From a virus: a DNA stretch of 64,000 bases. Shown piece after piece: positions 17,201 through 64,000 of this stretch (the first letter of the stretch is position 1; every line of letters begins with the position of its first letter). The DNA is taken from IMG/VR virus record IMGVR_UViG_3300030399_000348. One strand, written 5' to 3'. The notes under the pieces were generated by a model, which worked only from the letters and a program-made list of their open reading frames with translations, was not told the origin of the DNA and searched no databases. The translations under genes were made by a program, and so were the position numbers.

Positions 17201-20200
17201 AGATAGTCAAATCCGCTCACTGTAATGGGGCTGCCGACCGTAAGAGCGGGGAACGTAAATGGCGCGGCGGTGTAAATTGTGGTCGAGGGGGAGCCACTTC
17301 CAGCCGATGCTGTGATGGTGACGGTGCCGGAAATAGTGACTGGACCCGTGGTGACGAGGGCACGACCGTTTAAGGTCATGAGGGAGATGCTGTTCAGCGT
17401 AATGGCGGAAGTTGCGAGAATGTTCCCGGCCCATACATGGTCGTGAGCATCGAAAGTCGCTGCGCTGCCAACCACCCAAACCACGTTCGCGGCCGTAGCG
17501 CCGTTAATCAAAGCGATGGTGGTTGCGGCGGTCGTGACATTCAAAGCCGAACCAACTTGGAAGACGAACACTGGGTTTGTGAGTCCAGCACCGTCAAGCG
17601 TAATCGTGCCGCCCGTGAAGAGCAGCGTGCTGGAAGCAAAGCCGACGAAGCCGGGTCCGCCGTTGTAACCCGTTGGGGTTGCGGTAAAAGTGTGTGTAGC
17701 GTAGGATGCGCTGATCGCCGTCGAGGTCAAGCCATTGAAGAACACGAATGCCGCAGTCAAGTCTGTCTGGTTCTGTGCGACGGCGACGACTTGCTGTGCG
17801 GGTGGGGTGTAATTGAAAGTGCCCGTTATCGTGTTGGTCGGGACTGAACCTACATTGCCGCCAGCAACGTTAGCTATGGTAGCGGACGAGACGACAGCCG
17901 CAGCGAGGATGGCGTAAGTTGCCGCTGTGCCCAACTCCGTAGTAACGATAGACCCCGAGGCAGACCCGCTGATTGCTGAAACTAGCGAGTACGTACCGCT
18001 GGGGGCGGTTGCGGTCGTGCCATTCGGATTGCTCAGTATCAACTGCAAATGCGTAGAGTCTACGCAGTAGAACGTGCCGTTATTGACGGACTGATTAAAG
18101 CCCGAAACAGTGAACTGTTGTCCGATGAGGGCATTTTTCGCCGCACTCGGCTGACTTGTGGCGAATGTATATGTCGTTGTTGGCGCAAACGGAGCGACAG
18201 GGCTCGAAAGCGTACCCGTGGAGCCCGCTGGAAGAGGTGTAGGAAAGGCTTGGGTGAGCGAAGAGATGTAACCGAGCACGGGTACGGTTTCCGCTACGGG
18301 TGTCGCGTTCAGCAGGGTTAACGAGTTCGCAGTGGACGAGAAGCACAAAAACGTGCCGTTATTTGCGGCGTTCTGAAATCCCGAAACAATGAAAGTCAAA
18401 CCCGCGTAGGCATTGTCGCCGCCGCCACTGCAAAATCCTAATGTATCCGTGTACAAAGCGGCAGGCGAAGGCGACGGGTTGTTTACGACTGTGGGAGCGA
18501 CGGAACCCAAGCTGACGTAGGTCCCACCAAGGGTGAATCCTGCGAGGTTTCCTGTTATGGCGAACGGAGTTGCTTTGAACGTGTCTGCAAAGTTCCACAC
18601 GTGATCCACGAAGGCGGGGACAAGGATGGGATCGCTGATCGCGGGCTCAACAGTGATGGTGAACTGCGTTGAGATCATCGTGTTGGGCGATGCGCTGTCA
18701 CGAAGTACGAGTATGAATGAGTACGAGCCCGCCGTGGGGAAGTTTACATCAAACTCAATCTGCCCGTCTACGAGAGTAGCTGGTCCGTAATAGCTGCTGT
18801 TGCCGAAAGGGGCCAAGCCCAGAAACGTGTAGGGGAATACTCCACCGAAAACTGGAACCATCATCCCGAATTGCTGCCCCGCGTAGATGGTTGGTTGATC
18901 GAGAGAACCGAATTGCAATGCTTGGGGCACCAACGTCATCGTGTACGTCTGTGTGGCGATGGCACCGATAGCATCCGTCACCTGAACAACTGCCGAGAAC
19001 GTCTTGGTGAAATCGGAAGTCGAATTGTACGTGCTTGGGGTGCCTGAAATCAGCCCAGTGTTGGGGTTGATGCTGAGACCGATAGGCAGGTTGCCTGCTG
19101 GGATGCTCCACGTATACGGCGGCAAGCCTCCCGGAATGGGGTTGGCGGGATTGACATTTCCCACCTCCATTTGCACTGAGTACGGCGTACCAACTTGTGC
19201 AATGCCGAGCGAAGTTCCCAATTGCGTCAGTACGTTGCCCTTGGCGTCAGTCTGACCTAATGCGATCTCGACCAGCAGATCGGTGCTTACCGTGATGGAG
19301 AATGCCGCTTCAGCGATGAAGAACGGCACGCTGGAATCCTGTACGGCGAAGTTGATGGAGTAGGTCCCCAAGGCCAGCGGGGTCCCACTCAATACGCCGT
19401 TGATGCTCAGCTTCAAACCTGCGGGTAAACCATCCGTGTACCAAGCATACGGCGGGGTGCCGCCTGATGCCGCCATCTGGAATTCCTGCATCGCCTTACC
19501 GACGTAAATGGTCGTCGGTAATTGCGTCGTCGTGATAGTCACGGGGATCGAAGACGTGAGAGCGTTGAAACTGTTCTCATAGACGGGTACGATCAATTCC
19601 TTGGACTTCGGACGGCCTTCGATGGGGAATACGTCGATACCCATCGTGCCAAGCAGGGACGAGGCGTTGGAGAAACGAGTCGTTGCGATTCCAAGCTTGA
19701 TTTCGTTGGTCAGCGTATCGCGCACGAGGAAACGAGCGATCACTTCCCAAGGGTTGGCGGTTGACGCCACGCCCGTAGCGCCTGTAATCTCGAATCCTTG
19801 CTGACCACCGATGCCCAACGTGCCTGTCAAGGAGGTCGAGGTTGTGGTTGTTCCCGTGAACTGCTGATCGACCACGAATATCCCCACCGTAAGCTGACGC
19901 ATCAAAACAACGGACGGACTATAGATGGACGAGTTGTACAACTTGCGGGTCTGGATTACAACGTCCAGCGGACCCGAGATCGAAAACTGCTTGGTCAAAA
20001 GTGACGCGGAGAGCGGCAACCACCCCGTGCTTGAACCATCAGGCCAGAGAACCTGCCACTGGTCGGCGTTCACATACGCGGGTGCAAGCTGGAGCGTTAG
20101 AGGCTGTCCGAGTTGAAGCGTGGTGCTACTGAATACAACGTCTGCTGAAACGATGGCGTCGGGGAAAGCGAGCCCGGATGGTGTCAGCGAAGAAACATTG

Positions 20201-25280: not shown

Positions 25281-25910
25281 ATGCCGCCAGCGAATTACGA
25301 CTATCTCGATCAGAACATTGTCGCTACCTGTCTGATTCAGGCATACAATAACGACTCCTTCTACAACCCGACGACCAACAATCATTCTGGTTTCGCCGCT
25401 GATGGGACTTTTTACCTCAACGGGGTGCAGCAATTGGGTGACGGGTCGCCTCCGGGTCCGATCTACGCCTCGTGGTACACGGAGTTCTTCAGCCCAACGG
25501 CGAGCGGGCCCGAACCGTCGCGTGACTTTCGTGCAGCATTCCCCACCTATGGTGTAATACTGCTTTCCCCCGTGGCTATGACGATTTTAGATGAGAGTAC
25601 GCCCGTGCCACAGTCGAACGAATTGAAGCTGTGGATGCAGTTCGCTATCGCGGACGGCTACATGATGACCGACAACTACGTGTCAGCCTTGAACCCGCCT
25701 GTACTGGCGATTCAAGGATTCACCCCATCAGGGCTGTCGTATGCCGATGGAATCATCTCGATCACCTACACGCCCGACTCCGGTAACCAGCCGCCTGCTC
25801 TAGCGGGCAGTCCCGTGCCCGAGCCGCAACCGGGCGACTCCGCGCAATCCCACATGGTTGTAAGTATTGATTTCAGCCAAGATGCGGCTTACGTGGACGT
25901 GGCGCTCTAA
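25281..25910 (+). CDS. hypothetical protein (opposite strand to the virion operon)
   Basis: AGGAG SD, 209 aa, Pro/Ser-rich composition like the virion genes. Confidence 0.75.
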   Translation: MPPANYDYLDQNIVATCLIQAYNNDSFYNPTTNNHSGFAADGTFYLNGVQQLGDGSPPGPIYASWYTEFFSPTASGPEPSRDFRAAFPTYGVILLSPVAMTILDESTPVPQSNELKLWMQFAIADGYMMTDNYVSALNPPVLAIQGFTPSGLSYADGIISITYTPDSGNQPPALAGSPVPEPQPGDSAQSHMVVSIDFSQDAAYVDVAL

Positions 25911-25972
25911 TCGCAGAGTAAAACGAAGTTGAGCATGATTCCACTGATGTTAACTGTGATTTCAGTGGCGCT

Positions 25973-26767
25973 CTAATCGAGGATCGACGTGAAGTCCAGA
26001 TGGGCTTCGTGAACCACCCCACCCCGACACGCGATGGAGCCCCTGCGTGCCAAAGTATCCCATTGAAATTGAGCATTCGCGAATAGCGAACGGGCGTAGG
26101 CGTAATGCAGGAGAAGCTGTGCGAGGTTGTCGCCTGAGGAGTTCGTAGTCCAGATCGACGCACAGGCCGCGTCGTGCGTGCTGGCGAAGCTCATGGCGTC
26201 GGAGGTATCGGGGAGAGTCCCCACGGGGACTGGTGGAACCGTCTGATGTCCGACCGTCATGCCGCCCTCCTGCGTAACGAGATCAAAGAAGAACGCATAC
26301 GGACGGGAGCGGTCGGTGTAATCTGGGCAGTACGCCGCAACTTCGCGCTTGGCGTGACCGAGGACACCGTTGGTAGCCATCTGAATCTGAGCGTCGATGC
26401 TCTCGGGTTGATTTAGGAAGTTCACCCAACGAGCCTTCGCCCCGGGGTCGAGATTGGTGCTGCCTGTCGTGAGGTAGTGCTGCTGAACCCACGCGATGGC
26501 GGCGGTGGGTTGAAGTGAGGCGAACTGCTGGATGTCTGAGGAGAAGAACGTTTTGGCTTTGTCCCAGCCCGTGGCGGCGGCGATATTCTTGATGAGGGTC
26601 TGGAGGGTGCCTTGCCCTGCGTTCCATTGCAGGATGCCTGCGGACATGCCTTGTCCGTCGAAGTTGCCGCTCAAGTCGGCGTAGGAAGCGGCTCCGCGAG
26701 CCTCGAACTTCCCCGAGATGCCTAAACACAGTTCCAGCAAGCTTTTATCGTCTAGCATGACCTTCAA
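25973..26767 (-). CDS. putative endolysin, lysozyme-like fold
   Basis: FE....Y..LSGNFDGQGMSAGILQWNAGQGTLQ and AFFFDLVTQEGG motifs resemble peptidoglycan hydrolases. Start may be the ATG at 26758. Confidence 0.6.
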   Translation of the reverse strand: MKVMLDDKSLLELCLGISGKFEARGAASYADLSGNFDGQGMSAGILQWNAGQGTLQTLIKNIAAATGWDKAKTFFSSDIQQFASLQPTAAIAWVQQHYLTTGSTNLDPGAKARWVNFLNQPESIDAQIQMATNGVLGHAKREVAAYCPDYTDRSRPYAFFFDLVTQEGGMTVGHQTVPPVPVGTLPDTSDAMSFASTHDAACASIWTTNSSGDNLAQLLLHYAYARSLFANAQFQWDTLARRGSIACRGGVVHEAHLDFTSILD

Positions 26768-53947: not shown

Positions 53948-54113
53948 CGGTCGGCGGGGATGCGTGACACGTCTGGCAGAAACCAGCGTGCCCCAAAGTT
54001 CGGGTTAGCGGCGGGTGTAACCGTCGCTGTAAAGCGTAGGGCTGAAATCTTACGCTTCCCATCGGTCGGCGGGGACTCACGCCGCTCTGGATGAAACCAG
54101 AGTGCCCCAAAGT
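53948..54113 (+). ncRNA. duplicated structured motif flanking a three-way junction
   Basis: CGGTCGGCGGGGA...CTGG..GAAACCAG.GTGCCCCAAAGTT at 53948-54000 and 54063-54113. Confidence 0.6.
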
Positions 54114-54129
54114 TTAGACAGGAGAACCA

Positions 54130-54306
54130 ATGACTATCGGCGAGCGGCGAGAGGAACTGACAGCGATGACCTTCCGCAAACTCCGCAGGCTGTTTCGGCG
54201 GGTTGAGCGGCAGTACAACGTCGATTGGGCAGATCGCCGCAAGCGGGTAGATTTGGTTCAGGCGATCATCAACTACGAAGTCGGCGCAGGAGGTAAAGTC
54301 GGATGA
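54130..54306 (+). CDS. small basic protein (Rho N-terminal/HeH-like)
   Basis: AGGAG SD. MTIGERREELTAMTFRKLRRL...RKRVDLVQAII, 58 aa, below the ORF-track cutoff. Confidence 0.65.
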   Translation: MTIGERREELTAMTFRKLRRLFRRVERQYNVDWADRRKRVDLVQAIINYEVGAGGKVG

Positions 54307-54473
54307 AGTTTGTCGCATGGTTCGTAGTGCTCGCCGCGTACCTGACGTTTCGGTGCTGGCAGGGCGGCATGTTCGACACGGGACTGGAGCGCCTGTTCGG
54401 TTGGACGCCCGCCCGCGAGGACGACTCTTGGTTGCTGGACGAACTGAATCGCGACTTAGCGGGGGACGTATGA
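54303..54473 (+). CDS. small membrane protein
   Basis: ATGA overlap and GGAGG SD. MKFVAWFVVLAAYLTFRCWQGG..., 56 aa. Confidence 0.6.
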   Translation: MKFVAWFVVLAAYLTFRCWQGGMFDTGLERLFGWTPAREDDSWLLDELNRDLAGDV

Positions 54474-54715
54474 AGAGCGACAAAATTTACATCAACCTGT
54501 TGGTCTACAACTACGACGCTTCGCCGCGCCATGAGTACGTGCGGCACACATGCGGTGACGAGAAGAAGGCCCGCACGCTGGCGCTTCGGCTGCACAAGTT
54601 GATGGACGCCCGCAAGGGCAACCAGACGACTCGCTGGCTGGAGCAGCACACAGGCATCAGCGGATTCGTTGAGCGAATAGACGGCATCTACAAAGAAGTC
54701 ACGACCCGCTTGTAA
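54470..54715 (+). CDS. hypothetical protein
   Basis: ATGA overlap and GGGGGA SD. Starts MKSDKIYINLLVYNY. Confidence 0.65.
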   Translation: MKSDKIYINLLVYNYDASPRHEYVRHTCGDEKKARTLALRLHKLMDARKGNQTTRWLEQHTGISGFVERIDGIYKEVTTRL

Positions 54716-54738
54716 AAATGCCCAGACTACGGTATTGT
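54710..54738 (+). promoter_or_regulatory. sigma70-type promoter
   Basis: TTGTAA-N17-TATTGT. Confidence 0.65.
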
Positions 54739-54901
54739 ATTAGTGTATGCCTGCGGTTTACCGCTGCTCAGCCGAAAGGCGATAGGGCGTGACAGCCTTA
54801 GAGTATGTCCCGCAGACCCCCGACCACAGGCACGTGTCACCGTCCTGAGGGATGCGAATGAATTGGGGGATTTGTTGCATGTTGAAAGACTTGCAACGTC
54901 T

Positions 54902-54977
54902 GGGCCTGTAGTTCAGTTGGGAGAACGCTTCCTTTGCAAGGAAGAGGTCATCGGTTCGAGCCCGTTCAGGTCCACCA
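54902..54977 (+). tRNA. tRNA-Ala(TGC)
   Basis: Cloverleaf, loop TTTGCAA, G3-U70, encoded CCA. Confidence 0.95.
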
Positions 54978-55153
54978 AGTTTCGCCGATGCAGTTGGCGC
55001 TCATCCGCCTGATGAAGCTGCACTGGCAAGGGAGCCGATAAGCGAACGGGGATCATGCCCTCGCGTTAGGTCGGTCGGAGACGGCGTTTGTCCGCTTAGT
55101 TTTCCCGCAAGGGTGCAGGACATAGGCTCTAGCTCTTTTCTGAAAAATAGTTG

Positions 55154-55182
55154 TTGCAAGTTTCCTGAATACCGAGTATTGT
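55154..55182 (+). promoter_or_regulatory. sigma70-type promoter of leader/tRNA operon
   Basis: TTGCAA-N17-TATTGT. Confidence 0.75.
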
Positions 55183-55196
55183 AAATAGAGACGCTT

Positions 55197-55328
55197 ATGA
55201 ACTCCATTCTCCAAAACGCAGGTGTTATCGTGACGGTCGCCGCTTGTAGCGCAGCCGAACGCGGTACTGTCGCCGCTGGCGCGGCGGCGGTAGGAGATAT
55301 GGTGTCCTCGGGAGGGTTTGGAGAGTAA
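55197..55328 (+). CDS. putative attenuator leader peptide (43 aa, GNN-codon rich)
   Basis: MNSILQNAGVIVTVAACSAAERGTVAAGAAAVGDMVSSGGFGE. 26 GNN codons. The 3' end overlaps the antiterminator strand. Confidence 0.7.
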   Translation: MNSILQNAGVIVTVAACSAAERGTVAAGAAAVGDMVSSGGFGE

Positions 55329-55352
55329 CAACTTCCAAATCAACGGTTTCCG

Positions 55353-55385
55353 AGGACGCTCAAGCAGAGCGTCCTTTTTGTTTTT
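55353..55385 (+). terminator. intrinsic terminator (attenuator) upstream of the tRNA cluster
   Basis: AGGACGCTC-AAGCA-GAGCGTCCT followed by TTTTGTTTTT. Confidence 0.85.
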
Positions 55386-55397
55386 GCGGTAAAATTT

Positions 55398-55473
55398 GCG
55401 CGGGTAGCTTAGCGGCTAAAGCATCGCCCTTACAAGACGACTATCGTGGGTTCGAGTCCCACCCGGCGCACCA
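55398..55473 (+). tRNA. tRNA-Val(TAC)
   Basis: Cloverleaf, loop CTTACAA, CCA. One mismatch each in the acceptor and anticodon stems. Confidence 0.85.
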
Positions 55474-55489
55474 AGATTGGATTGAAAGA

Positions 55490-55717
55490 ATGAAACGCAA
55501 CAGATCACGCATCATAAAACTGGTCACGACCGTAGAGGTTGAGAAACAGGATTGGGGCTTCCAAGCATGGCACCCCACGTTGGGATTAGTTGCGACTGCC
55601 GACACCGAGGATGAAGTCCTCGACAAGATGGACAAGATGGTGGTTCGGCAATTAGAGTTTGATCTGACTCACGGCACGTTGAAGAGTGTCGCGAAGCCAG
55701 CAAAAATGGGCCGGTAG
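55490..55717 (+). CDS. HicB-like small protein
   Basis: VEVEKQDWGFQAWHPTLGLVATADTEDEVLDKM resembles the HicB N-terminal fold. Stop codon lies inside the next tRNA. Confidence 0.55.
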   Translation: MKRNRSRIIKLVTTVEVEKQDWGFQAWHPTLGLVATADTEDEVLDKMDKMVVRQLEFDLTHGTLKSVAKPAKMGR

Positions 55718-55782
55718 CATAACTGGGAATGCATCTCGCTTGCAACGAGAAAGAAGGAGTTCGAATCTCCCCGTGTCCACCA
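55708..55782 (+). tRNA. tRNA-Ala(TGC), slightly irregular acceptor/T stem
   Basis: Loop CTTGCAA, G3-U70, CCA. Confidence 0.8.
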
Positions 55783-55795
55783 ATTTTAGAAAGAT

Positions 55796-55870
55796 AGCGG
55801 CGTAGCCAAGTGGTAAGGTCGAGACCTGCAACGTCTTTATTCGCGAGTTCGATTCTCGCCGCCGCTTCCA
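55796..55870 (+). tRNA. tRNA-Cys(GCA)
   Basis: Loop CTGCAAC, U73, CCA. Confidence 0.9.
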
Positions 55871-55888
55871 AGTTTTGTTTTGTAATGC

Positions 55889-55967
55889 GGGGCCGTGGTG
55901 TAGCCCGGTCTAACATGCTTCCCTGTCACGGAAGAGATCGCGGGTTCAAATCCCGTCGTCCCCGCCA
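55889..55967 (+). tRNA. tRNA-Asp(GTC)
   Basis: Loop CTGTCAC, G73, CCA. Confidence 0.9.
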
Positions 55968-55973
55968 AATTTT

Positions 55974-56050
55974 GGTGACGTACCATAACTGGCTAATGGG
56001 CTCCCCTGTCACGGGAGAATATAGGGGTTCAAATCCCCCCGTCACCGCCA
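55974..56050 (+). tRNA. tRNA-Asp(GTC)
   Basis: Loop CTGTCAC, G73, CCA. Confidence 0.9.
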
Positions 56051-56057
56051 AGTTTTT

Positions 56058-56133
56058 GCATCCGTGGCGAAACGGGAACGCGGTGGTCTGCAAAACCACT
56101 ACTGAGTCGGCTCGACACCGACCGGGTGCTCCA
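56058..56133 (+). tRNA. tRNA-Cys(GCA), atypical T-loop
   Basis: Loop CTGCAAA, U73, CCA. T-loop CTCGACA. Confidence 0.8.
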
Positions 56134-56209
56134 AGATTAAAGCCTAGTATATTGGGCTTTAGAGGCAGAAAGTCAGCTTTCGCATTGTATATTAGGTCTT
56201 TGAAAATTT

Positions 56210-56585
56210 GTGTTGAACTGGACGACCGCCGCTGCGTAGATATACGTCCTGTGCTTGGAAGCGTTGGCGAAAGCCTTCCCAACCAAGTCCGGTGTTGAGC
56301 GCAGGGGAGGAAGTTCGGGACTGCAAAGAACAGCGTGCCAGCTAACGGCTGGGCGGCACCCGCAAGGGTGTTGACGATTAGAGCTACAGAGACGAGCCGA
56401 TTCAGTTCGGGTGAAACGAGCAATCTCCACGTGCAGCAAGCCCAAATAGGCTGAGCAGGATTGTGTTCGATCCGTTCGCTTCGCAAGAGGCGGGTAATCA
56501 GCGGGTAGGGTGCTTGAGCGTTGTAGCGATGCAACGCCTAGAGGAATGGTCGTCCGCGACAGAATCCCGGCTATAGGTTCAACAC
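56210..56585 (+). ncRNA. rnpB: RNase P RNA (type A-like, reduced S-domain)
   Basis: P1 GTGTTGAAC/GTTCAACAC and P2 GGACGACC/GGTCGTCC. CR-I GAGGAAGTTCGGGA pairs with CR-V ACAGAATCCCGGCTA (P4). ACAGAGACG, GGTGAAAC, GAGGAAT and a P18 hairpin are present. Confidence 0.9.
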
Positions 56586-56727
56586 GAATAAGTTGTGTGA
56601 TCCGCGTGGACACGAAAGTGAAAAACGCTGTAGCTGCGGCTGCGAGACTCGATCCCCGACAGGGGCGTTGGTTCCGGGAAACCCGAATCAATTGTGGCGA
56701 AAGCCGACCGACTGGGACACACGTAGT

Positions 56728-56802
56728 GCGGACATAGTTCAGTGGTAGAACGCATCCTTGCCAAGGATGAGGTCGCGGGTTCGAGCCCCGCTGTCCGCTC
56801 CA
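56728..56802 (+). tRNA. tRNA-Gly(GCC)
   Basis: Loop TTGCCAA, U73, CCA. Confidence 0.95.
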
Positions 56803-56906
56803 AGATTAACATCTGCCTATAAGCCAAGCGGCGAAAGCCGGGGCAGAGACCGACCGAAAGGCGTCCATGCATGAATGGACATAGTGAAGAGTTCTTGGCG
56901 TTGTTC

Positions 56907-56981
56907 GCGGGCGTAGTTCAGCGGAAGAATGCGTGCTTCCCAAGCATGAGGTCACGGGTTCAAATCCCGTCGCCCGCTCCA
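56907..56981 (+). tRNA. tRNA-Gly(CCC)
   Basis: Loop TTCCCAA, U73, CCA. Confidence 0.95.
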
Positions 56982-57014
56982 AGCTTTAACGCAAAAGATT
57001 TTGAGTGGTAAGTT

Positions 57015-57090
57015 GGGCCTATGGCGCAGTTGGGAGCGCGTTTCCATGGCATGGAAAAGGTCGTGAGTTCAAATCTCACTAGGTCCACCA
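57015..57090 (+). tRNA. tRNA-Ala(GGC)
   Basis: Loop ATGGCAT, G3-U70, CCA. Confidence 0.93.
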
Positions 57091-57101
57091 AATTTTATTG
57101 T

Positions 57102-57177
57102 GGCGTTGCCGTCTATCGGTTTGGACCTTGCACTCTCAATGCAATGACGGTGGGTTCGACTCCCATCAACGCTACCA
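57102..57177 (+). tRNA. tRNA-Glu(CTC)
   Basis: Loop CTCTCAA, CCA. Confidence 0.88.
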
Positions 57178-57184
57178 AGTTTGA

Positions 57185-57260
57185 GCACTTTTAACTCAGC
57201 GGCCAGAGTACCACTTTCACACGGTGGGAGTCGCAGGTTCGAATCCTGCAAGGTGCACCA
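57185..57260 (+). tRNA. tRNA-Val(CAC)
   Basis: Loop TTCACAC, A73, CCA. Confidence 0.92.
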
Positions 57261-57279
57261 AGTGTGGTAGAATAGAGCG

Positions 57280-57684
57280 ATGAATAGCTCAAAAGCAGGA
57301 AACGTGGCTGTAGCCGCTGTGCTGGCTGCGTTAGTGAAGAACGATGAGAACGTTTTGATCCCATTCGGGGACGCCCAGCGGTACGATCTGGTGACCTTGA
57401 ATGACAACGGTAGCGTTACGCGGATTCAGGTGAAGAAGGGGCGGTTGAGCAAGAACCGCACGGTTATTCGGTTCAACACCTGTAGTCAGTCACGAAATTG
57501 CCCGCGTAAGAGTTATCGAAACGACGCGGAGATGTTTGCGGTGCACGTTGCGGAACTCGGGAAGATTTATTTCGTCCCCGTAGCCGATGCACCAGAGGCG
57601 GGATGCCAATTACGTTTGACGCCGCCAAAGAACAGCCAACGTGAAGGCGTCCGTTGGGCGAAAGATTACGATTCGGGCCTGTAG
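57280..57684 (+). CDS. PD-(D/E)XK homing-type endonuclease in the tRNA cluster
   Basis: VLIPFGDAQRYDLV...RIQVKKG...Y....EMFAV pattern. TAGAAT just upstream. Stop codon overlaps the next tRNA. Confidence 0.85.
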   Translation: MNSSKAGNVAVAAVLAALVKNDENVLIPFGDAQRYDLVTLNDNGSVTRIQVKKGRLSKNRTVIRFNTCSQSRNCPRKSYRNDAEMFAVHVAELGKIYFVPVADAPEAGCQLRLTPPKNSQREGVRWAKDYDSGL

Positions 57685-57750
57685 CTCAGTTGGGAGAGCG
57701 CACCGTTCGCAACGGTGAGGTCAGGGGTTCAACTCCCCTTAGGTCCACCA
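57675..57750 (+). tRNA. tRNA-Ala(CGC)
   Basis: Loop TTCGCAA, G3-U70, CCA. Confidence 0.93.
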
Positions 57751-57753
57751 GAT

Positions 57754-57831
57754 GTTGGCTTTAGCTCAGGAACAGAGCACTCCCATTAACGGGGGAGGGG
57801 TCGGACGTGAAATGCAGTCCAAGCCACACCA
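57754..57831 (+). tRNA. degenerate tRNA-like gene (anticodon possibly AAC)
   Basis: TAGCTCAG...GAGC D-arm, CTCCC/GGGAG stem with 8-nt loop ATTAACGG, non-canonical T-loop, ends in ACCA. Confidence 0.5.
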
Positions 57832-57942
57832 AGGTTACCGAGTTTAGGGAGTTTATCAAAACTTCATAAACTCATGGGTGGGTTGCCGCGATCATGAGGC
57901 GGTGTAAAATCCTTGCCGGGGTTTCCTTTCCACCAAGTTTTT

Positions 57943-58034
57943 GTGCCTGTAGCTCAACTGGCAGAGCGGCTTCCATCAGCCTCGAAAGAGGCGCGTGGAG
58001 CAGGTCGGAGGTTCGATCCCTCTCGGGTACACCA
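57943..58034 (+). tRNA. tRNA-like RNA with Ala identity and a hairpin replacing the anticodon loop
   Basis: Normal acceptor, D and T arms and CCA. The anticodon stem encloses 23 nt including GCCTC-GAAA-GAGGC. Confidence 0.7.
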
Positions 58035-58036
58035 GT

Positions 58037-58112
58037 GCGCTGTTAGATTAGCGGCTAAATCGCTACCATGACAAGGTAGAGACCGTTGGTTCGAGTCCAA
58101 CACGGCGTACCA
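58037..58112 (+). tRNA. tRNA-Val(GAC)
   Basis: Loop ATGACAA, A73, CCA. Confidence 0.9.
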
Positions 58113-58286
58113 AGATTAGGGGCAATGCCTCTAGGCTGGCAGGAAATACGGCAAATACCTGTGATGCTCGCACAGCAACGCCTGCAAGCGTGAAGTGTGT
58201 GGGTTTTGGTACAGCCAAGTCCCAAAGCGGTTGAAGGTCGCTGTCCTTGCAGGGATTGTGGACAACAACCGCAGAGTTTAAGCTGT

Positions 58287-58362
58287 GGGGTATCCGTCTA
58301 TCGGTTTGGACCTCTGACTTTCAATCAGATGACGAAGGGTTCGACTCCCTTATACCCTACCA
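58287..58362 (+). tRNA. tRNA-Glu(TTC)
   Basis: Loop CTTTCAA, CCA. Confidence 0.9.
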
Positions 58363-58366
58363 AATT

Positions 58367-58576
58367 TTATCGCTTGGTTTTGGCATTCCCGAGAATTGAG
58401 CGGTAGAAACGGGACGTGCCAGCGGCGAATGAGCCCCAGTTGCGGGTGCCCCGCCGTCCAGCCATCGTCCGAGCCTTGAACTGCGGGCAAGCGGATGTCA
58501 TCTTGCAGCATCTAGGCTGCTCTCTCCCACCCCCGTACTTGGCTTCCCGACCGCAACCCATCCAGCATAGCGTCAT
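58367..58576 (-). pseudogene. possible truncated homing-endonuclease N-terminus
   Basis: LCWMGCGREAKY....RCC....ACP resembles Zn-binding N-termini of phage HNH proteins. No nuclease domain follows. Confidence 0.35.
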
Positions 58577-58650
58577 ACCTATGATTCCTATAGTTGAAAT
58601 CCGACTTTCATTTCTATATGTTATGCGCTACAATCATATAGAGTTCTTTT

Positions 58651-59283
58651 ATGACCAAGACCTGTACGAAATGTAAAACCCCAAAAGAATTGGCCGAATT
58701 CTATGACGATCCCCGAGGTCGGTTTGGGAAGCAGTCCCGCTGTAAACTATGTCAGGGCGAAAGTACAAAACAATGGCGGGCAGAAAGTACCGATGCCGCT
58801 CGAATGAGTCAAAGGAAGACCGCCAGAAAGTATAAAGCCTACTGGCGTACCCACAATCCCTATGATGAAACAAAATTTCGGCATTGTCCTCATTGCAATC
58901 TCAACAAACCCAGTTTAGATTTTGATGAGTGTCATTCAGTAGCGGACGGCTTGCAATCATGGTGTCGGGGATGCAGTGGCTCACGAAGCTCCATCACTAC
59001 AATGCTGACTTGGACTCGGGCAAGGGCGAAGAAGAACGGTATGGAATTTTCTCTCGCTAAGGAAGACATCACCATACCCGAAACATGCCCCGTTCTCGGG
59101 ATTCCGCTATACAAAATGAAAGGACGTGCAGGCTCCAATTCCCCCTCGTTAGACCGTATTAGAAGTAGTGAGGGGTATGTGCCCAACAACGTCAGAGTTA
59201 TCTCATACCGAGCAAATTTCTTGAAAAACAATGCGACAGTCGAAGAGCTAGAAAAGGTTCTGGTTTATATGAGGTCTTCGTGA
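58651..59283 (+). CDS. HNH homing endonuclease
   Basis: Two CxxC...C..C Zn modules. IPETCPVLGIPL...SPSLDRI....GYVPNNVRVISYRAN..KN. Confidence 0.9.
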   Translation: MTKTCTKCKTPKELAEFYDDPRGRFGKQSRCKLCQGESTKQWRAESTDAARMSQRKTARKYKAYWRTHNPYDETKFRHCPHCNLNKPSLDFDECHSVADGLQSWCRGCSGSRSSITTMLTWTRARAKKNGMEFSLAKEDITIPETCPVLGIPLYKMKGRAGSNSPSLDRIRSSEGYVPNNVRVISYRANFLKNNATVEELEKVLVYMRSS

Positions 59284-60026
59284 AATTACAAATTTGTTCG
59301 GATTTACACACCGAGTTCTATGACATGCCGCTGTCCGTTCTCAAGCGGATGGACTTCGCCCCCGATCTGGATTTCCTCGCCCTACCCGGAGATATCGTCG
59401 TTCCTTGTCGCCAGAATGGGAAGATCGTTCAGCAGGTGTTGGCCTTCCTAAGCACGAAGGCGCGGCACGTTCTGTACACCACGGGCAACCACGAATACTA
59501 CGGCGGCACCCGCGAGAGGGCGGAATTCGTCCTCAGGTCGTACATGCCGAAGAACTTCGTCTGGTTGCAAAACAGCGACGTGACCCTCGACGGCGTGCAT
59601 TTCTTTGGCGGCACGCTGTGGTTTCCCGATCAGCCCTTGAACCAGTTGTATGAGAGTTCTATGTCGGATTTCAGCGTAATTAAGGACTTTCGTGAGTGGG
59701 TGTACGTGGAGAATGCGGCGTTCCGCGAGGCCGCGATGCGGTTGGTGACGCCCCAGACTGTGGTGCTGAGCCATCACTTGCCGCATCCACGCAGCACGCC
59801 TCCACAGTTTGTCAACAGTCCGCTCAACCGTTTTTTCACATCGGATGAGACGGCAGTGATCGAGGCCAAGCAACCGAGATACTGGTTTCACGGGCACACG
59901 CACGGGATGGCGGAATACTTTCTTGGAGAAACGCACGTAGTGTGTTATCCGTTCGGCTACCCGCACGAGCGACTGAACATGGGTCCGAGACAGCAAGAAT
60001 ACAAAGCAGAGGTCTTCGATGTCTGA
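59280..60026 (+). CDS. calcineurin-like metallophosphoesterase
   Basis: SDLH, GDI, GNHE, SHH and HGHTH motifs. Confidence 0.92.
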   Translation: MKLQICSDLHTEFYDMPLSVLKRMDFAPDLDFLALPGDIVVPCRQNGKIVQQVLAFLSTKARHVLYTTGNHEYYGGTRERAEFVLRSYMPKNFVWLQNSDVTLDGVHFFGGTLWFPDQPLNQLYESSMSDFSVIKDFREWVYVENAAFREAAMRLVTPQTVVLSHHLPHPRSTPPQFVNSPLNRFFTSDETAVIEAKQPRYWFHGHTHGMAEYFLGETHVVCYPFGYPHERLNMGPRQQEYKAEVFDV

Positions 60027-60432
60027 TGAATTGAAATGGTGCCCGCACTGTGAATCAGACAAATCGGTTGACGACTTCCATAAGAACAGGGCCGCTTACG
60101 GTGGGCGACAGGGCTACTGCAAGGAGTGCAAATATAAGGCGGATCGGGAGTGGATGTTGCAACGAAGAAAGGAAAACTACGGAAACGTGGCGATCTATCT
60201 TCGGAGCCATCCTTGCGTCGGCTGCGGTGAGGCGGACATTATCGTTCTGGATTTTGACCACCAAGGGGACAAGGTAAAGAGCATCTCCGATATGTGCAAT
60301 CAGGGCTGTCCGTGGTCGAAAATTGAAGCCGAGATTGCAAAATGTGAGGTTGTGTGTAAGAATTGTCATTACAGGCGTACCGTGAAGCAACAGAATCACC
60401 CACGCCACAGAATGGTCGAGGAGATGGTATGA
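60019..60432 (+). CDS. HNH endonuclease
   Basis: CVGCGE.DIIVLDFDH...EIAKCEVVCKNCH. Confidence 0.88.
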   Translation: MSDELKWCPHCESDKSVDDFHKNRAAYGGRQGYCKECKYKADREWMLQRRKENYGNVAIYLRSHPCVGCGEADIIVLDFDHQGDKVKSISDMCNQGCPWSKIEAEIAKCEVVCKNCHYRRTVKQQNHPRHRMVEEMV

Positions 60433-60653
60433 GAGAAAAAAGCGTAGTGGAACATCGCGGTGATGGCGCACGCAAGGCAGCACGTCGGCAATTTCGCCAC
60501 AAACTTCTGAACGAGAAGATCAAGGAGTTTCGCAACCCCAAGTACAACCTGAGCCCCGCAGGTGCTCGCTTCCACGCTCGCGTAGCGGTGGATGTCCTGT
60601 TGTCCCAAGGCGCGACTGATGTCAATACCCATGGTCGGGGGTTAATGCGATGA
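60429..60653 (+). CDS. small basic hypothetical protein
   Basis: ATGA-coupled start MREKSVVEHR. Confidence 0.6.
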   Translation: MREKSVVEHRGDGARKAARRQFRHKLLNEKIKEFRNPKYNLSPAGARFHARVAVDVLLSQGATDVNTHGRGLMR

Positions 60654-60949
60654 GCGGCGACGAGATCAGAGCATACGTCCTCCTCGGCTGCCTAATCGCA
60701 GTCTACCCCGTTTTCGCAGGCGTCAAAGCCATCGAGAAGGCAATCGGCCCAGAAGTTGTGACCTACGATGGCTGCGACTACAAGGTCGAGAACCTGAACA
60801 GCTACGGGGACACTAAGGTCATTCGTCCCTTGGATAAAGATGCGGAAGCCTGCATCGCGAAGCAAAAGAAAGACAACGACGATAACGCCGTGTTCAATTA
60901 CCAGCAGGCTCATCGGAAACACAAATCGGGAGATGAGGTCAATCAGTAA
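60650..60949 (+). CDS. hypothetical membrane-anchored protein
   Basis: N-terminal hydrophobic segment, ATGA overlap. Confidence 0.65.
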   Translation: MSGDEIRAYVLLGCLIAVYPVFAGVKAIEKAIGPEVVTYDGCDYKVENLNSYGDTKVIRPLDKDAEACIAKQKKDNDDNAVFNYQQAHRKHKSGDEVNQ

Positions 60950-61110
60950 TGGCGAGCGCACACGCGAAAATTAGTTATGTCAAGAGCGGTGTCAGAATTC
61001 TTGGGTACGGCTGTCTGTTCCTCGTAGATCACCACCCCGCCGTGTACGCCGCCGCAGGGCTCCTCATCATCGCCGAGATTATCGGCATCGTCGAGGAGAT
61101 CGGTTATTAA
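60949..61110 (+). CDS. small two-TM membrane protein
   Basis: TAATG coupling. MASAHAKISYVKSGVRILGYG...LLIIAEIIGIVEEIGY, 53 aa. Confidence 0.7.
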   Translation: MASAHAKISYVKSGVRILGYGCLFLVDHHPAVYAAAGLLIIAEIIGIVEEIGY

Positions 61111-61129
61111 CCAAGACCCTCTAGCTGCG

Positions 61130-61390
61130 TTGGGGTTGCTCATCCGCAAGTTCGGTCATAGGATCGACGGCGGCTATGAGGTCTTCATTCCTGAGGGGGT
61201 GCTTCAGGACTTGGGGTCGCGTGCCCAGATTCAAGTGGAGCCCGATTTCCAACGCAAGGGTTTCAAGTTCAGGGTTTTTCTCAACACGATTGTCAATGGA
61301 ACGTGGAGTGAAGTTAAGGAAGAAAATGGTAGCGTCAGCGGCAGTAGACCCGACCAACTTGCCAAAACGGATGAGCCGCCCGCAGCTTGA
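61130..61390 (+). CDS. hypothetical protein
   Basis: 86 aa, start uncertain. Confidence 0.5.
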   Translation: MGLLIRKFGHRIDGGYEVFIPEGVLQDLGSRAQIQVEPDFQRKGFKFRVFLNTIVNGTWSEVKEENGSVSGSRPDQLAKTDEPPAA

Positions 61391-61961
61391 GTGGTGGATT
61401 CTTTTCGGTATCTGTGTGGCAGGCAAGAGCGCGAAGGGCACCGAGAAGAAAGTCCAAGCCTTCATGGAATTCCCCTACACCAACATGGGGAGCAACAAAC
61501 CCATGTCGCCGTTCGAGCGCGTGCGGTTCATGATCCGCCACAAGAAGCTCGCCATCGCCCTGAAGCACGTCAAGATGGGCAAGTACGCCCTGTTCAACAA
61601 AGCCTTCCGTGCCGCCGTCAACATCGACCTCGACAATATCTCCGTCGTAGCCCTCGAAAAAGTTCCGGGCATTGGTCCTAAAACCGCCCGCATGACCGCC
61701 ATGTACGGGTTCCCCGATACGGCAGGCGAGGTTGCAGTTCTCGACACGCACATCCTGAAGTGGCTTCGACTGAAGGGCTATGACGCCCCGAAGAGCACGC
61801 CACAGGCTGGCAAGCGGTATCTCCAATTGGAGCAGGCGTTTATCGCCGAAGCTAAGAAGCGGGGCAAGACCGCCCGCGAACTCGACACCGAAATTTGGCA
61901 GTCCTACACCGCAAATCCCGTCTTTACCGATAATCCAGTCCTCGCCAATCCCATTTCCTAG
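61326..61961 (+). CDS. HhH-GPD DNA glycosylase-like protein (OGG/Nth superfamily)
   Basis: LEKVPGIGPKTARM HhH motif with Lys, VAVLDTHILKWLR with Asp, YLQLEQAF...ELDTEIW. Confidence 0.8.
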   Translation: MVASAAVDPTNLPKRMSRPQLEWWILFGICVAGKSAKGTEKKVQAFMEFPYTNMGSNKPMSPFERVRFMIRHKKLAIALKHVKMGKYALFNKAFRAAVNIDLDNISVVALEKVPGIGPKTARMTAMYGFPDTAGEVAVLDTHILKWLRLKGYDAPKSTPQAGKRYLQLEQAFIAEAKKRGKTARELDTEIWQSYTANPVFTDNPVLANPIS

Positions 61962-61994
61962 ACTTTCAAAGGCTTATGTTAGGAGACATAAGCC

Positions 61995-62426
61995 ATGCGA
62001 ACCTGTCGCGTTTGTGACCAACCAAAAGAGTTAACCGAAAAATATTTCCGCATCAATTCCACTGGGAGAGGCTTTCGTTGGCGCTGTCGTCAATGTGAGG
62101 TCGATCAACACATGAATTGGGTGCGTGAAAATCGTTCCAAGGATATGCTCCAATCCGCTCGGCGTAGAGCAAAAAGAGCGGTTGTCCCATGCACGATATC
62201 CTTCGAAGATATAGTAATCCCAGAAATTTGCCCCGTTTTCGGGCACAAACTAGAGCGCGGAACGCGGTCTTCCCACGATTGGGCACCTAGTCTTGACCGA
62301 AACAAACCGGAACTTGGGTATGTGCGGGGCAACGTGCGGGTCATCTCCAATAAAGCCAACAGGTTGAAGAGTGACGCTTCACTCGATGAGCTTCGACAGC
62401 TAGTCGCCTACCTAGAAAGACTTTAG
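61995..62426 (+). CDS. HNH homing endonuclease
   Basis: IPEICPVFG...APSLDR..PELGYVRGNVRVISNKANRLKS. Paralogue of 58651..59283. Confidence 0.9.
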   Translation: MRTCRVCDQPKELTEKYFRINSTGRGFRWRCRQCEVDQHMNWVRENRSKDMLQSARRRAKRAVVPCTISFEDIVIPEICPVFGHKLERGTRSSHDWAPSLDRNKPELGYVRGNVRVISNKANRLKSDASLDELRQLVAYLERL

Positions 62427-62446
62427 GGCTCTTTTAATGAGCCCCT

Positions 62447-63112
62447 ATGCCGATACGCCTCCCAATCTCCAAGCTCGCTGCTTCAGCGGTAGCCCCGCTG
62501 CAAACCTCTCCACGTTTCACGAACGACCTGCTTCAATCGGGGGTAACGTGGCCGCAGGATGTGAATTACCTAAGAGATACGTACATGGAAATTTACGCTC
62601 TCTGGGATCGATTGAAAGACCCCGCACAGGACGCCGAGTTGTTTCAAGCAACGGAACCTCTCCTTCGCGAACTCCTCGTCGGTTTGGGGGATGTCTCCAA
62701 AGAACTCTCTACTCGAAGGGATATTCTTCGCGATGTAACGAACGCTGGTCACGACGCTGATGTCGCTCAGTCGTATGGGCGGGCAGGTGATTTTGGGATG
62801 GGCACAGTGTATCAATCATATTCTGCGATGAAGCTCCATCGAGTGCTCGACACACTGACTCTGGATGCCAACAAGAAGCGTGGGTCTCAGCAAAAACTAG
62901 CCTACGGATACGATGTTAGTGGGGAAGTCCACGAGCAAGGCGGCACCAGCGGAAACGATAAAGCACAGGACGATCTGGGAAACTCTCCCAAATTTGAACA
63001 CACTCCACCGAACCCCGTTGCCGTGGCACAAGACTACGAGGCAGAGGAAGAATTTCCTGAGTTAGCGGAGATCAAGCACAAGCGAGTCGAGTGGCCTCAG
63101 AGGAACAGATAA
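62447..63112 (+). CDS. hypothetical protein
   Basis: 221 aa, acidic and helical. Confidence 0.7.
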   Translation: MPIRLPISKLAASAVAPLQTSPRFTNDLLQSGVTWPQDVNYLRDTYMEIYALWDRLKDPAQDAELFQATEPLLRELLVGLGDVSKELSTRRDILRDVTNAGHDADVAQSYGRAGDFGMGTVYQSYSAMKLHRVLDTLTLDANKKRGSQQKLAYGYDVSGEVHEQGGTSGNDKAQDDLGNSPKFEHTPPNPVAVAQDYEAEEEFPELAEIKHKRVEWPQRNR

Positions 63113-63115
63113 AAC

Positions 63116-63685
63116 ATGAAAATAGATACCAAAATCGGAGAGACGTTCGGCAGGCTGAAAGTGCTTGCTCGGGTATCGGGTAAGCGGGAGCCCGCTAAAT
63201 ACTCATGTGAATGTGCTTGTGGAACCCTGACTGAGGTTTTTGGAACTAACTTAGGGAGAAAGGGGACACGACCCAATACTGAAAGCTGCGGGTGCTTGCA
63301 GCGAGAGCGTGCTTCGGAAGCCAAACGCAAGGCTTTCCGTCCGTTCGAGCACATCTACAATGCCCTTGTTCATCGCACACGTAAAAAAATCAGAGTTGTT
63401 GATTTATCGTTTGAAGAATTTTTAGAGTTCACGAAAATCAATGAATGCCATTATTGCGGGGTTCCCATCACATGGATGCCTTACAGCAATAGACAAACCT
63501 ATGGAAGATACTATCTTGACCGCAAGAATAATGATTTGGAGTATGTCAAAAACAACCTCGTTGTTTGTTGCGGAGTTTGCAACCACGGTAAAGCGCATCG
63601 TTACACCTACGAAGAGTGGGTTTGCATGACAGCGGCGTTGAAGCGGTTTAGAGCAAACAAGTTGAGTTTTGCGGAGGCGAAGTAA
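63116..63685 (+). CDS. HNH homing endonuclease
   Basis: GETFGRLKV...CECACG...SCGC and CHYCG...LDRKNNDLEYVKNNLVVCCGVCNHGK. Paralogue of 24417..25184. Confidence 0.9.
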   Translation: MKIDTKIGETFGRLKVLARVSGKREPAKYSCECACGTLTEVFGTNLGRKGTRPNTESCGCLQRERASEAKRKAFRPFEHIYNALVHRTRKKIRVVDLSFEEFLEFTKINECHYCGVPITWMPYSNRQTYGRYYLDRKNNDLEYVKNNLVVCCGVCNHGKAHRYTYEEWVCMTAALKRFRANKLSFAEAK

Positions 63686-64000
63686 TGGCGAACGGACCCA
63701 CTCGCGTGTGCGTTTTTAACGTTAAGGCGAACCAACAGTTTGCGCCCCCCGTCGTGCCCAATCAGACGGGATCGAATCTGATTGACATCGTGACGGGTTG
63801 CGACGGCGTGGTCGTGTCTTCGCTCGGAGCCGCGTCGTATGGCGTGCCAGTAGTTCTGAATCCGAATGGCGTCATTGATCCCTCATTGCTGAACACAGGC
63901 GTCTCCGCTGTCGCGAGTGTGAATCTCTCCTTGGGAGCCCCGCTCGTCCATCTCTACAGTGTCGGCGGCGTCCTGACGGCAGAGCTTGCTGAAGCTGGCA
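63685..64000 (+). CDS. 5' part of a hypothetical (probably virion) protein, truncated by the window edge
   Basis: TAATG coupling and GGAGG SD. Starts MANGPTRVCVFNVKANQQFAPPVVP. Confidence 0.6.
   Translation, partial: MANGPTRVCVFNVKANQQFAPPVVPNQTGSNLIDIVTGCDGVVVSSLGAASYGVPVVLNPNGVIDPSLLNTGVSAVASVNLSLGAPLVHLYSVGGVLTAELAEAG

Follow-up and report, generated by a model that had tools for sequence, protein, structure and literature searches.

The 64,000-nucleotide stretch of IMG/VR virus record IMGVR_UViG_3300030399_000348 analysed here (the window) carries, between positions 54902 and 58362, an array of tRNA genes that mostly decode codons beginning with G. We propose, with a probability of about 0.7, that this array is an attenuator-gated tRNA regulon, one of about six in an uncultured peat phage of ~450 kb. 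Phage tRNAs are usually viewed as passive codon-usage helpers or as spares against tRNA-cleaving defences, and little is known of how their genes are controlled. Our proposal draws on the anatomy of a short leader open reading frame (ORF) and the terminator behind it, on their conservation among relatives, on covariation within the alternative antiterminator, on the match between the leader's codons and the tRNAs downstream, and on the way in which different leaders pair with different tRNA clusters in related genomes.

An array of tRNAs for G-starting codons and cysteine

Fifteen canonical tRNA genes, all on the plus strand, occupy 54902–58362, and ARAGORN and the Rfam tRNA model concur on them over the whole 64-kb window. 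Thirteen decode GNN codons, with the anticodons Ala TGC (two copies), GGC and CGC; Val TAC, CAC and GAC; Gly GCC and CCC; Asp GTC (two copies); and Glu CTC and TTC. The remaining two are both Cys(GCA), and Gly(TCC) is missing from the array. An earlier note, made from the letters alone, had described the same composition, with C at anticodon position 36 (C36) in 13 of 15 tRNAs, two Cys(GCA) and no Gly(TCC). Both programs bear this description out, the anticodons called are those that the note lists, and the enrichment goes beyond chance, as detailed below.

The genes appear intact. The Rfam tRNA model scores all 15 at 46–74 bits against a gathering score of 29, and each cloverleaf has a 7-nt anticodon loop, U33, A37 and an encoded CCA end. 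Identity-defining elements, chosen according to the established E. coli tRNA identity rules, also match the anticodons: G3-U70 is present in all four tRNA-Ala, U73 in Gly and Cys, G73 in Asp and A73 in Val. Genes that share an anticodon differ considerably from each other (68% identity for Ala, 60.5% for Cys and 73% for Asp); every duplicate copy has its own orthologue in relatives, and the divergence between the duplicated isoacceptors is old.

ARAGORN found no tRNA elsewhere in the window (1–54901 and 58363–64000), and none is present in the 28 kb past its right end, as read from an identical IMG/VR contig. With introns allowed, the program's only additions were implausible tRNA-Ser predictions: one required a 2668-nt intron and the other, at the tRNA-like gene at 57943 described below, a 7-nt intron.

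A codon-matched leader and a predicted two-state terminator

The control region that we propose lies between the first tRNA gene, tRNA-Ala(UGC) #1, and tRNA-Val(UAC). It begins with a promoter-like site, P2 (TTGCAA-N17-TATTGT; 55154–55182, plus strand), which stands before a leader ORF of 43 codons (MNSILQNAGVIVTVAACSAAERGTVAAGAAAVGDMVSSGGFGE; 55197–55328, plus strand) that starts 15 nt past it. A similar site, P1 (TTGTAA-N17-TATTGT; 54710–54738, plus strand), is found upstream of tRNA-Ala #1. Both are pattern matches: the promoter pattern was derived from relatives and then scanned over the window, where it has three matches in the whole 64 kb, P1 and P2 among them. A simple sigma-70 scan gave no excess of sites over shuffled sequence (4 sites versus 2.9 expected).

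The leader is written largely in the codons that the array reads. GNN or Cys codons fill 27 of the 42 positions that follow the start codon, compared with a background share of ~0.34 (binomial P 7e-5); in the long ORFs of the window, the share of GNN codons alone is 33%. Of the 17 codons that the array tRNAs can decode, 15 occur in the leader, one Cys codon included. The ORF is conserved in all nine related sequences examined, each with a Cys codon; Cys makes up ~1% of these proteomes, yet its codon is retained in every leader.

Downstream of the leader lies an intrinsic terminator (55352–55386, plus strand), which consists of a 10-bp GC-rich hairpin (55352–55376; −17.5 kcal/mol) and a U-run, and ends 12 nt before tRNA-Val. 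The alternative structure is an antiterminator (55301–55360, plus strand; −31.8 kcal/mol), formed when the final codons of the leader base-pair with the terminator's 5' arm and with the sequence flanking it on the 5' side, so that the two structures share the bases of that arm. Free RNA is predicted to fold into the antiterminator. When the RNA is blocked up to 55341, 13 nt past the stop codon, as it would be by a terminating ribosome, the full terminator is predicted instead.

This predicted switch is conserved. A terminator hairpin is predicted in nine of nine related sequences and the two-state fold in eight of them; the terminator was compared by folding each sequence separately, and MAFFT shifted its register in some rows of the alignment. 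The outer antiterminator helix, of 8 bp, is 100% paired across the nine sequences, with compensatory double changes in five of its eight pairs. None of 500 shuffles matched this covariation, and slid controls were 32–58% paired.

Within the leader, just before the antiterminator arm, a further hairpin (GUCGCCGC-UGGC-GCGGCGGC; 55266–55291) is also found in two relatives, G003 and G004. By pausing RNA polymerase, it might keep transcription in step with translation of the leader.

Related genomes carry further leaders at other tRNA clusters

Statements about genome-wide organisation rest on three IMG/VR relatives read whole (G002, G003 and G004), not on the window's own genome. Relatives were recovered by exact-word and protein searches, and ARAGORN was run on all three in full. 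G003 (463 kb) and G004 (456 kb) are judged complete, and G002 is a 103-kb contig that is collinear with the window at ~82% nucleotide identity. In G002, the next tRNA cluster is found ~3–13 kb past the window's left end, and the window therefore shows a single cluster, here called cluster D.

G003 carries 68 tRNA genes and G004 carries 61; these cover all 20 amino acids and fall into 5–7 clusters. In both genomes, cluster A holds four Ser tRNAs and Leu(UAA), cluster B Trp, His, Arg, Asn, Gln and Lys, and cluster C Gln, Thr and Ile, with a small group, C2, of CUA-anticodon tRNAs just upstream (together with a Lys in G003). Cluster D holds every GNN decoder and two Cys, cluster E Tyr and the other Leu isoacceptors, and cluster F Pro, Met and Phe. 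Across six lineages, cluster D consists solely of Ala, Val, Gly, Asp, Glu and Cys tRNAs; the ribonucleotide reductases of these lineages are 67–96% identical to that of the window, and their gene order is thoroughly shuffled. The membership of clusters E and F is likewise conserved in more distant lineages.

Most clusters in the relatives have a promoter, a leader ORF enriched in their own codons and a terminator. Sites equivalent to P2 (TTGACA/TTGCAA-N17-TATTAT) stand before the leaders of clusters A, B, C, D and E. Short ORFs with a terminator behind them were sought throughout G003 and G004 without regard to composition, and this search yielded the leaders immediately before clusters A, C, D and E; leaders B and F were located by position and conservation and partly by composition, and leader B has both a promoter and a terminator. 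The six leaders of G003 and G004 are enriched 1.7–5.4 fold in the codons of their own cluster. In both genomes the true assignment of leaders to clusters ranks first of 720 permutations, a rank somewhat favoured by the composition-guided choice of leaders B and F.

The match extends to individual codons. The leader of the Ser cluster uses all six Ser codons in G003 and five in G004, and it also uses TTA, the sole Leu codon whose tRNA belongs to that cluster; the five other Leu codons are used by the Tyr/Leu-cluster leader in G003. The Thr/Ile/Gln leader directly precedes exactly the Thr, Ile and Gln tRNAs, and in a further relative, G007, a Thr/Gln-rich leader is followed by Thr and Gln tRNAs.

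Two further features of these clusters were observed. Cluster B (G003 87720–94583; G004 283827–290590) comprises exactly the six amino acids with a side-chain nitrogen, and its leaders name the same six, a pattern that was spotted post hoc. Each relative also has two to three tRNAs with a CUA anticodon, that is, amber suppressors (G002 100290–100461; G003 238747–239065; G004 25852–26052). In G002 and G003 these lie upstream of the Thr/Ile/Gln leader, and hence outside it, and in G004 they form a separate cluster. TAG may be recoded in some genes; in the window, the standard code leaves the long ORFs uninterrupted.

Sorting by first codon base is confined to cluster D

All C36 tRNAs of the complete relatives lie in cluster D (13 of 13 in G003 and 14 of 14 in G004; hypergeometric 6e-12, for a cluster of 15–16 genes among 65 tRNAs in G003 and 60 in G004). 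Since duplication alone could cluster isoacceptors, the test was also made with each amino acid counted as one unit, and the chance of five GNN families sharing one cluster is then 3.4e-4. The other clusters of the complete relatives mix codons that start with T, C and A. With cluster D removed, neighbouring families share their first codon base no more often than in shuffles (P 0.68 and 0.34), and the codon-row rule is thus confined to cluster D, with no sorting of this kind across the genome.

These results divide the earlier note's suggestion that the phage organises its tRNAs into co-regulated modules by codon row. Modules with their own promoter, codon-enriched leader and terminator are present at most clusters, whereas row sorting stops at cluster D: the other clusters are not specific for ANN, CNN or TNN codons, although they do have leaders. 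A random tRNA order throughout the genome, which the note had named as the outcome that would speak against it, describes the other clusters by first base and fails for cluster D.

Why cluster D alone should be row-pure bears on whether its grouping was selected at all. The cluster might be a historical accident, inherited through local duplication and rearrangement, with a purity that has no function and a leader that drifted or adapted to the genes behind it. That only one cluster is row-pure is in keeping with this account, as is the conserved membership of other clusters, which is expected if local rearrangements outnumber long-range moves. However, the chance of the five-family grouping is small, and the leader follows the membership, Cys included, in six lineages. 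In addition, tRNAs for different amino acids are about as similar in body within cluster D as between clusters (0.56 versus 0.53 in G003; 0.51 versus 0.50 in G004). We therefore rejected recent in-situ duplication followed by anticodon change as the origin of the block, given that this similarity is not clearly above the between-cluster level. We consider an accidental grouping unlikely; it is compatible with a real attenuator and disputes only selection on the grouping.

A selective explanation of another kind is counter-defence, in which the array would replace host C36 tRNAs destroyed by a host or phage nuclease and the divergent duplicates would be escape variants. Phage tRNAs are known to counter tRNA-targeting immune systems (PMC12409363). 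The duplicates, at 60–73% identity and with every copy conserved, agree with such a role, and a leader that senses depletion would fit it. Against this, the complete 20-amino-acid sets of the relatives are arranged alike, so that the C36 class is not singled out, the Cys tRNAs break the C36 rule, and we know of no nuclease specific for C36 tRNAs. The earlier note's alternative, in which the array offsets a host activity against this class, accordingly gains no specific support from relatives whose full sets are organised in the same way, and we regard counter-defence of this kind as very improbable. Codon-usage compensation, whereby GNN codons would be in high phage demand and poorly served by the host, has in its favour the 33% share of these codons in the window's long ORFs and the standing of codon-usage matching as the usual account of phage tRNAs (PMC11924767), but its likelihood is close to negligible, because the relatives carry all isoacceptors of every amino acid and no selected subset, and because demand leaves the physical grouping, the Cys members and the leaders unaccounted for.

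Genes of the array and its surroundings

All array genes described here are on the plus strand, and each tRNA was called by ARAGORN and the Rfam tRNA model. tRNA-Ala(UGC) #1 (54902–54977; 64.5 bits), with G3-U70, A73 and CCA, lies upstream of the attenuator. Behind the terminator come tRNA-Val(UAC) (55398–55473), tRNA-Ala(UGC) #2 (55708–55782; 47.3 bits, 68% identical to #1), tRNA-Cys(GCA) #1 (55796–55870), with U73, tRNA-Asp(GUC) #1 (55889–55967), with G73, tRNA-Asp(GUC) #2 (55974–56050; 73% identical to #1) and tRNA-Cys(GCA) #2 (56058–56133; 60.5% identical to #1). Beyond an RNase P RNA gene the array continues with tRNA-Gly(GCC) (56728–56802; 73.5 bits) and tRNA-Gly(CCC) (56907–56981). These are followed by tRNA-Ala(GGC) (57015–57090), tRNA-Glu(CUC) (57102–57177), tRNA-Val(CAC) (57185–57260), tRNA-Ala(CGC) (57675–57750), tRNA-Val(GAC) (58037–58112) and tRNA-Glu(UUC) (58287–58362).

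The RNase P RNA in the middle of the block (56210–56589, plus strand) is of the bacterial class-A type (Rfam RF00010, 175 bits against a gathering score of 100). The predicted RNA is a full-length match (model positions 1–367), with a shortened P12–P14 region and no P19, and it occurs at the equivalent place in five related lineages. The earlier note mentions neither this gene nor the tRNA-like gene described below. Contigs from peat RNA libraries cover 56206–56589 at a level of at least 99%. They also join 56589 directly to 56206, a sign that the RNA may be a discrete, abundant species of ~384 nt. A 748-nt RNA-library contig from a related strain spans 55367–56050, although DNA carry-over is possible.

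In every one of the relatives L003–L005 and G002–G004, tRNA-Gly(UCC) lies directly 3' of the RNase P RNA, and its loss from the window is a clean deletion between 56589 and 56595. The 138 nt that now follow (56590–56727) are 97% conserved in G002 and have a strong predicted fold (−50.8 kcal/mol). In lineage L015 the GNN tRNA block contains a tmRNA (18797–19160; Rfam 124 bits; ARAGORN tag AEPLSMYAMA); the 22-kb locus around it yielded no RNase P RNA.

Near the 3' end of the array, a tRNA-like gene (57943–58034, plus strand) scores 43.5 bits against the Rfam tRNA model (match 57943–58031). Its acceptor, D and T arms are normal, with G3-U70, A73 and CCA, and its anticodon loop is extended to 23 nt and holds a GCCTC-GAAA-GAGGC hairpin, so that no anticodon is presented. 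An equivalent Rfam match is found in the relative L006. Two neighbouring stretches (57753–57830 and 57835–57940) have tRNA-like ends (..CCACCAAG), yet no model matched them.

Two protein-coding ORFs, both on the plus strand, are placed between tRNA genes. One, of 75 aa (55490–55717), had no Pfam match at E ≤ 0.01. The other, of 134 aa (57280–57684), encodes a PD-(D/E)XK endonuclease (Pfam PF11645, E 2e-29) and is probably a mobile nuclease; the spacer that carries it varies in length between relatives.

The surrounding genes, which include a DnaB-like helicase, a B12-type ribonucleotide reductase, an endolysin and very long minus-strand ORFs, point to a large tailed phage. DNA nearly identical to 54700–58700 occurs in at least 18 peat metagenome runs dated 2019–2025, and the phage is therefore widespread in peat; the sample from which the window came may be among these runs. 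Its ribonucleotide reductase-like protein is less than 60% identical to that of any phage in the collection of cultured phages. The best cultured DNA match is Tunturiibacter phage Tunturi_5 (PP885688), with 6% of the array region covered at 82.5% identity.

A proposed mechanism of tRNA supply control

By analogy with classical attenuators, the signal would be ribosome stalling, and the same analogy sets the direction of the response. The promoter at 55154–55182 would drive the 43-codon leader, which is written mainly in codons of the downstream tRNAs. If a ribosome translated the leader smoothly to its stop codon, it would cover the antiterminator arm, the terminator would form, and the tRNA block and the RNase P RNA would stay off. 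Were charged GNN or Cys tRNAs scarce, the ribosome would stall within the leader, leaving the antiterminator to form and the block to be transcribed; an untranslated leader would likewise adopt the antiterminator and allow transcription. Put more simply, this would be multivalent leader-peptide attenuation acting on tRNA genes, and it would work as a supply homeostat. The purity of the G row is, on this model, membership of one regulon, mirrored by the leader down to Cys. The grouping of these six amino acids is not explained by the data.

Several observations weigh against regulation of this kind. About one third of the codons in the leader have no cognate tRNA in the array, three GGA codons are retained in the leader although tRNA-Gly(UCC) has been lost, and tRNA-Ala #1 lies upstream of the leader and hence outside the gate. 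The fold of lineage L015 keeps the terminator in both states, leader F has no clear terminator in G003, and the cluster-E leader of G003 fits the codons of the Ser cluster slightly better than its own; the help that the permutation rank receives from composition-guided leaders belongs here too. The peat RNA-library data consist of contigs, which barely cover the leader region and cannot show termination. Finally, an extra tRNA would be useless where the amino acid, and not the tRNA, is limiting.

The leaders could have a more specific purpose, namely a functional partition in which each detects the loss of one class of charged tRNA and the phage restocks that class alone. The loss could be due to a shortage of nutrients, to tRNA-targeting immunity or to anticodon nucleases of the host, and the G-row module and the side-chain-nitrogen module would reflect the insults met in peat bacteria. 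We offer this partition tentatively and think it rather doubtful.

If the attenuator-gated regulon is real, a clade of very large phages gauges decoding speed for each codon class by means of miniature test genes, and responds by turning on the corresponding tRNA block and, with it, the ribozyme that processes its tRNAs. Trp-style attenuation would thereby be extended from amino-acid supply to tRNA supply, and the sorting of tRNA genes by amino acid in these genomes would be accounted for. Such leaders would also provide a compact sensor of codon-specific translation speed. The membership of the G-row cluster then raises the question of what decides which amino acids share one sensor. Our searches returned no relevant literature on leader-peptide control of tRNA genes or on phage-encoded RNase P RNA, within a coverage that mostly excluded subscription journals.

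Comparison with known systems

Among cultured phages, Tunturi_5 (PP885688; PMC11924767) resembles the relatives of the window phage in its large, near-complete tRNA set, which is held in few clusters with isoacceptors adjacent and tRNA-processing functions nearby. Unlike them, it mixes GNN decoders with other tRNAs over two clusters. No RNase P RNA was found in the 42 kb of Tunturi_5 examined and no codon-matched leaders in a scan of it, and without these features and a G-row cluster we rejected it as a cultured model of the system.

T-box riboswitches also sense tRNA charging and also place a terminator and antiterminator upstream of translation-related genes. A T-box, however, binds uncharged tRNA directly and dispenses with a leader ORF. 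In 54000–59000, no cis-regulatory Rfam family, T-box included, was detected at E ≤ 1, and a T-box identity for the control region was rejected for want of a covariance-model match there.

The closest parallels are the attenuators of enterobacterial amino-acid operons. Multivalent examples include thrL, with Thr and Ile codons, and the ilvGMEDA leader, with Ile, Leu and Val codons, alongside hisL, trpL and pheL, and the aminoacyl-tRNA synthetase genes pheST are under attenuation as well. In Streptomyces, attenuators precede the synthetase genes trpS and leuS (PMC1262725), and for pheL the stalling of ribosomes on hungry codons has been described as the attenuation signal (PMC3082878).

The window shares the basic plan of these systems. 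It has a short leader rich in regulatory codons, a Rho-independent terminator, and an antiterminator that excludes this terminator and takes its 5' arm from within the leader coding region or from the sequence immediately downstream, with stalling presumed. As folded in silico, the region thus appears to combine the leader, terminator and alternative antiterminator that structurally define a leader-peptide attenuator. At the phage leader we found no region 1 that could impose termination in the absence of leader translation, and the default state therefore looks ON. The phage system also departs from the classical ones in its targets, which are tRNAs and an RNase P RNA and not biosynthetic enzymes or synthetases, and in its breadth, with one leader sampling six amino acids through 15 codons. 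Moreover, about six parallel copies are present per phage genome, and each fits the tRNA block behind it.

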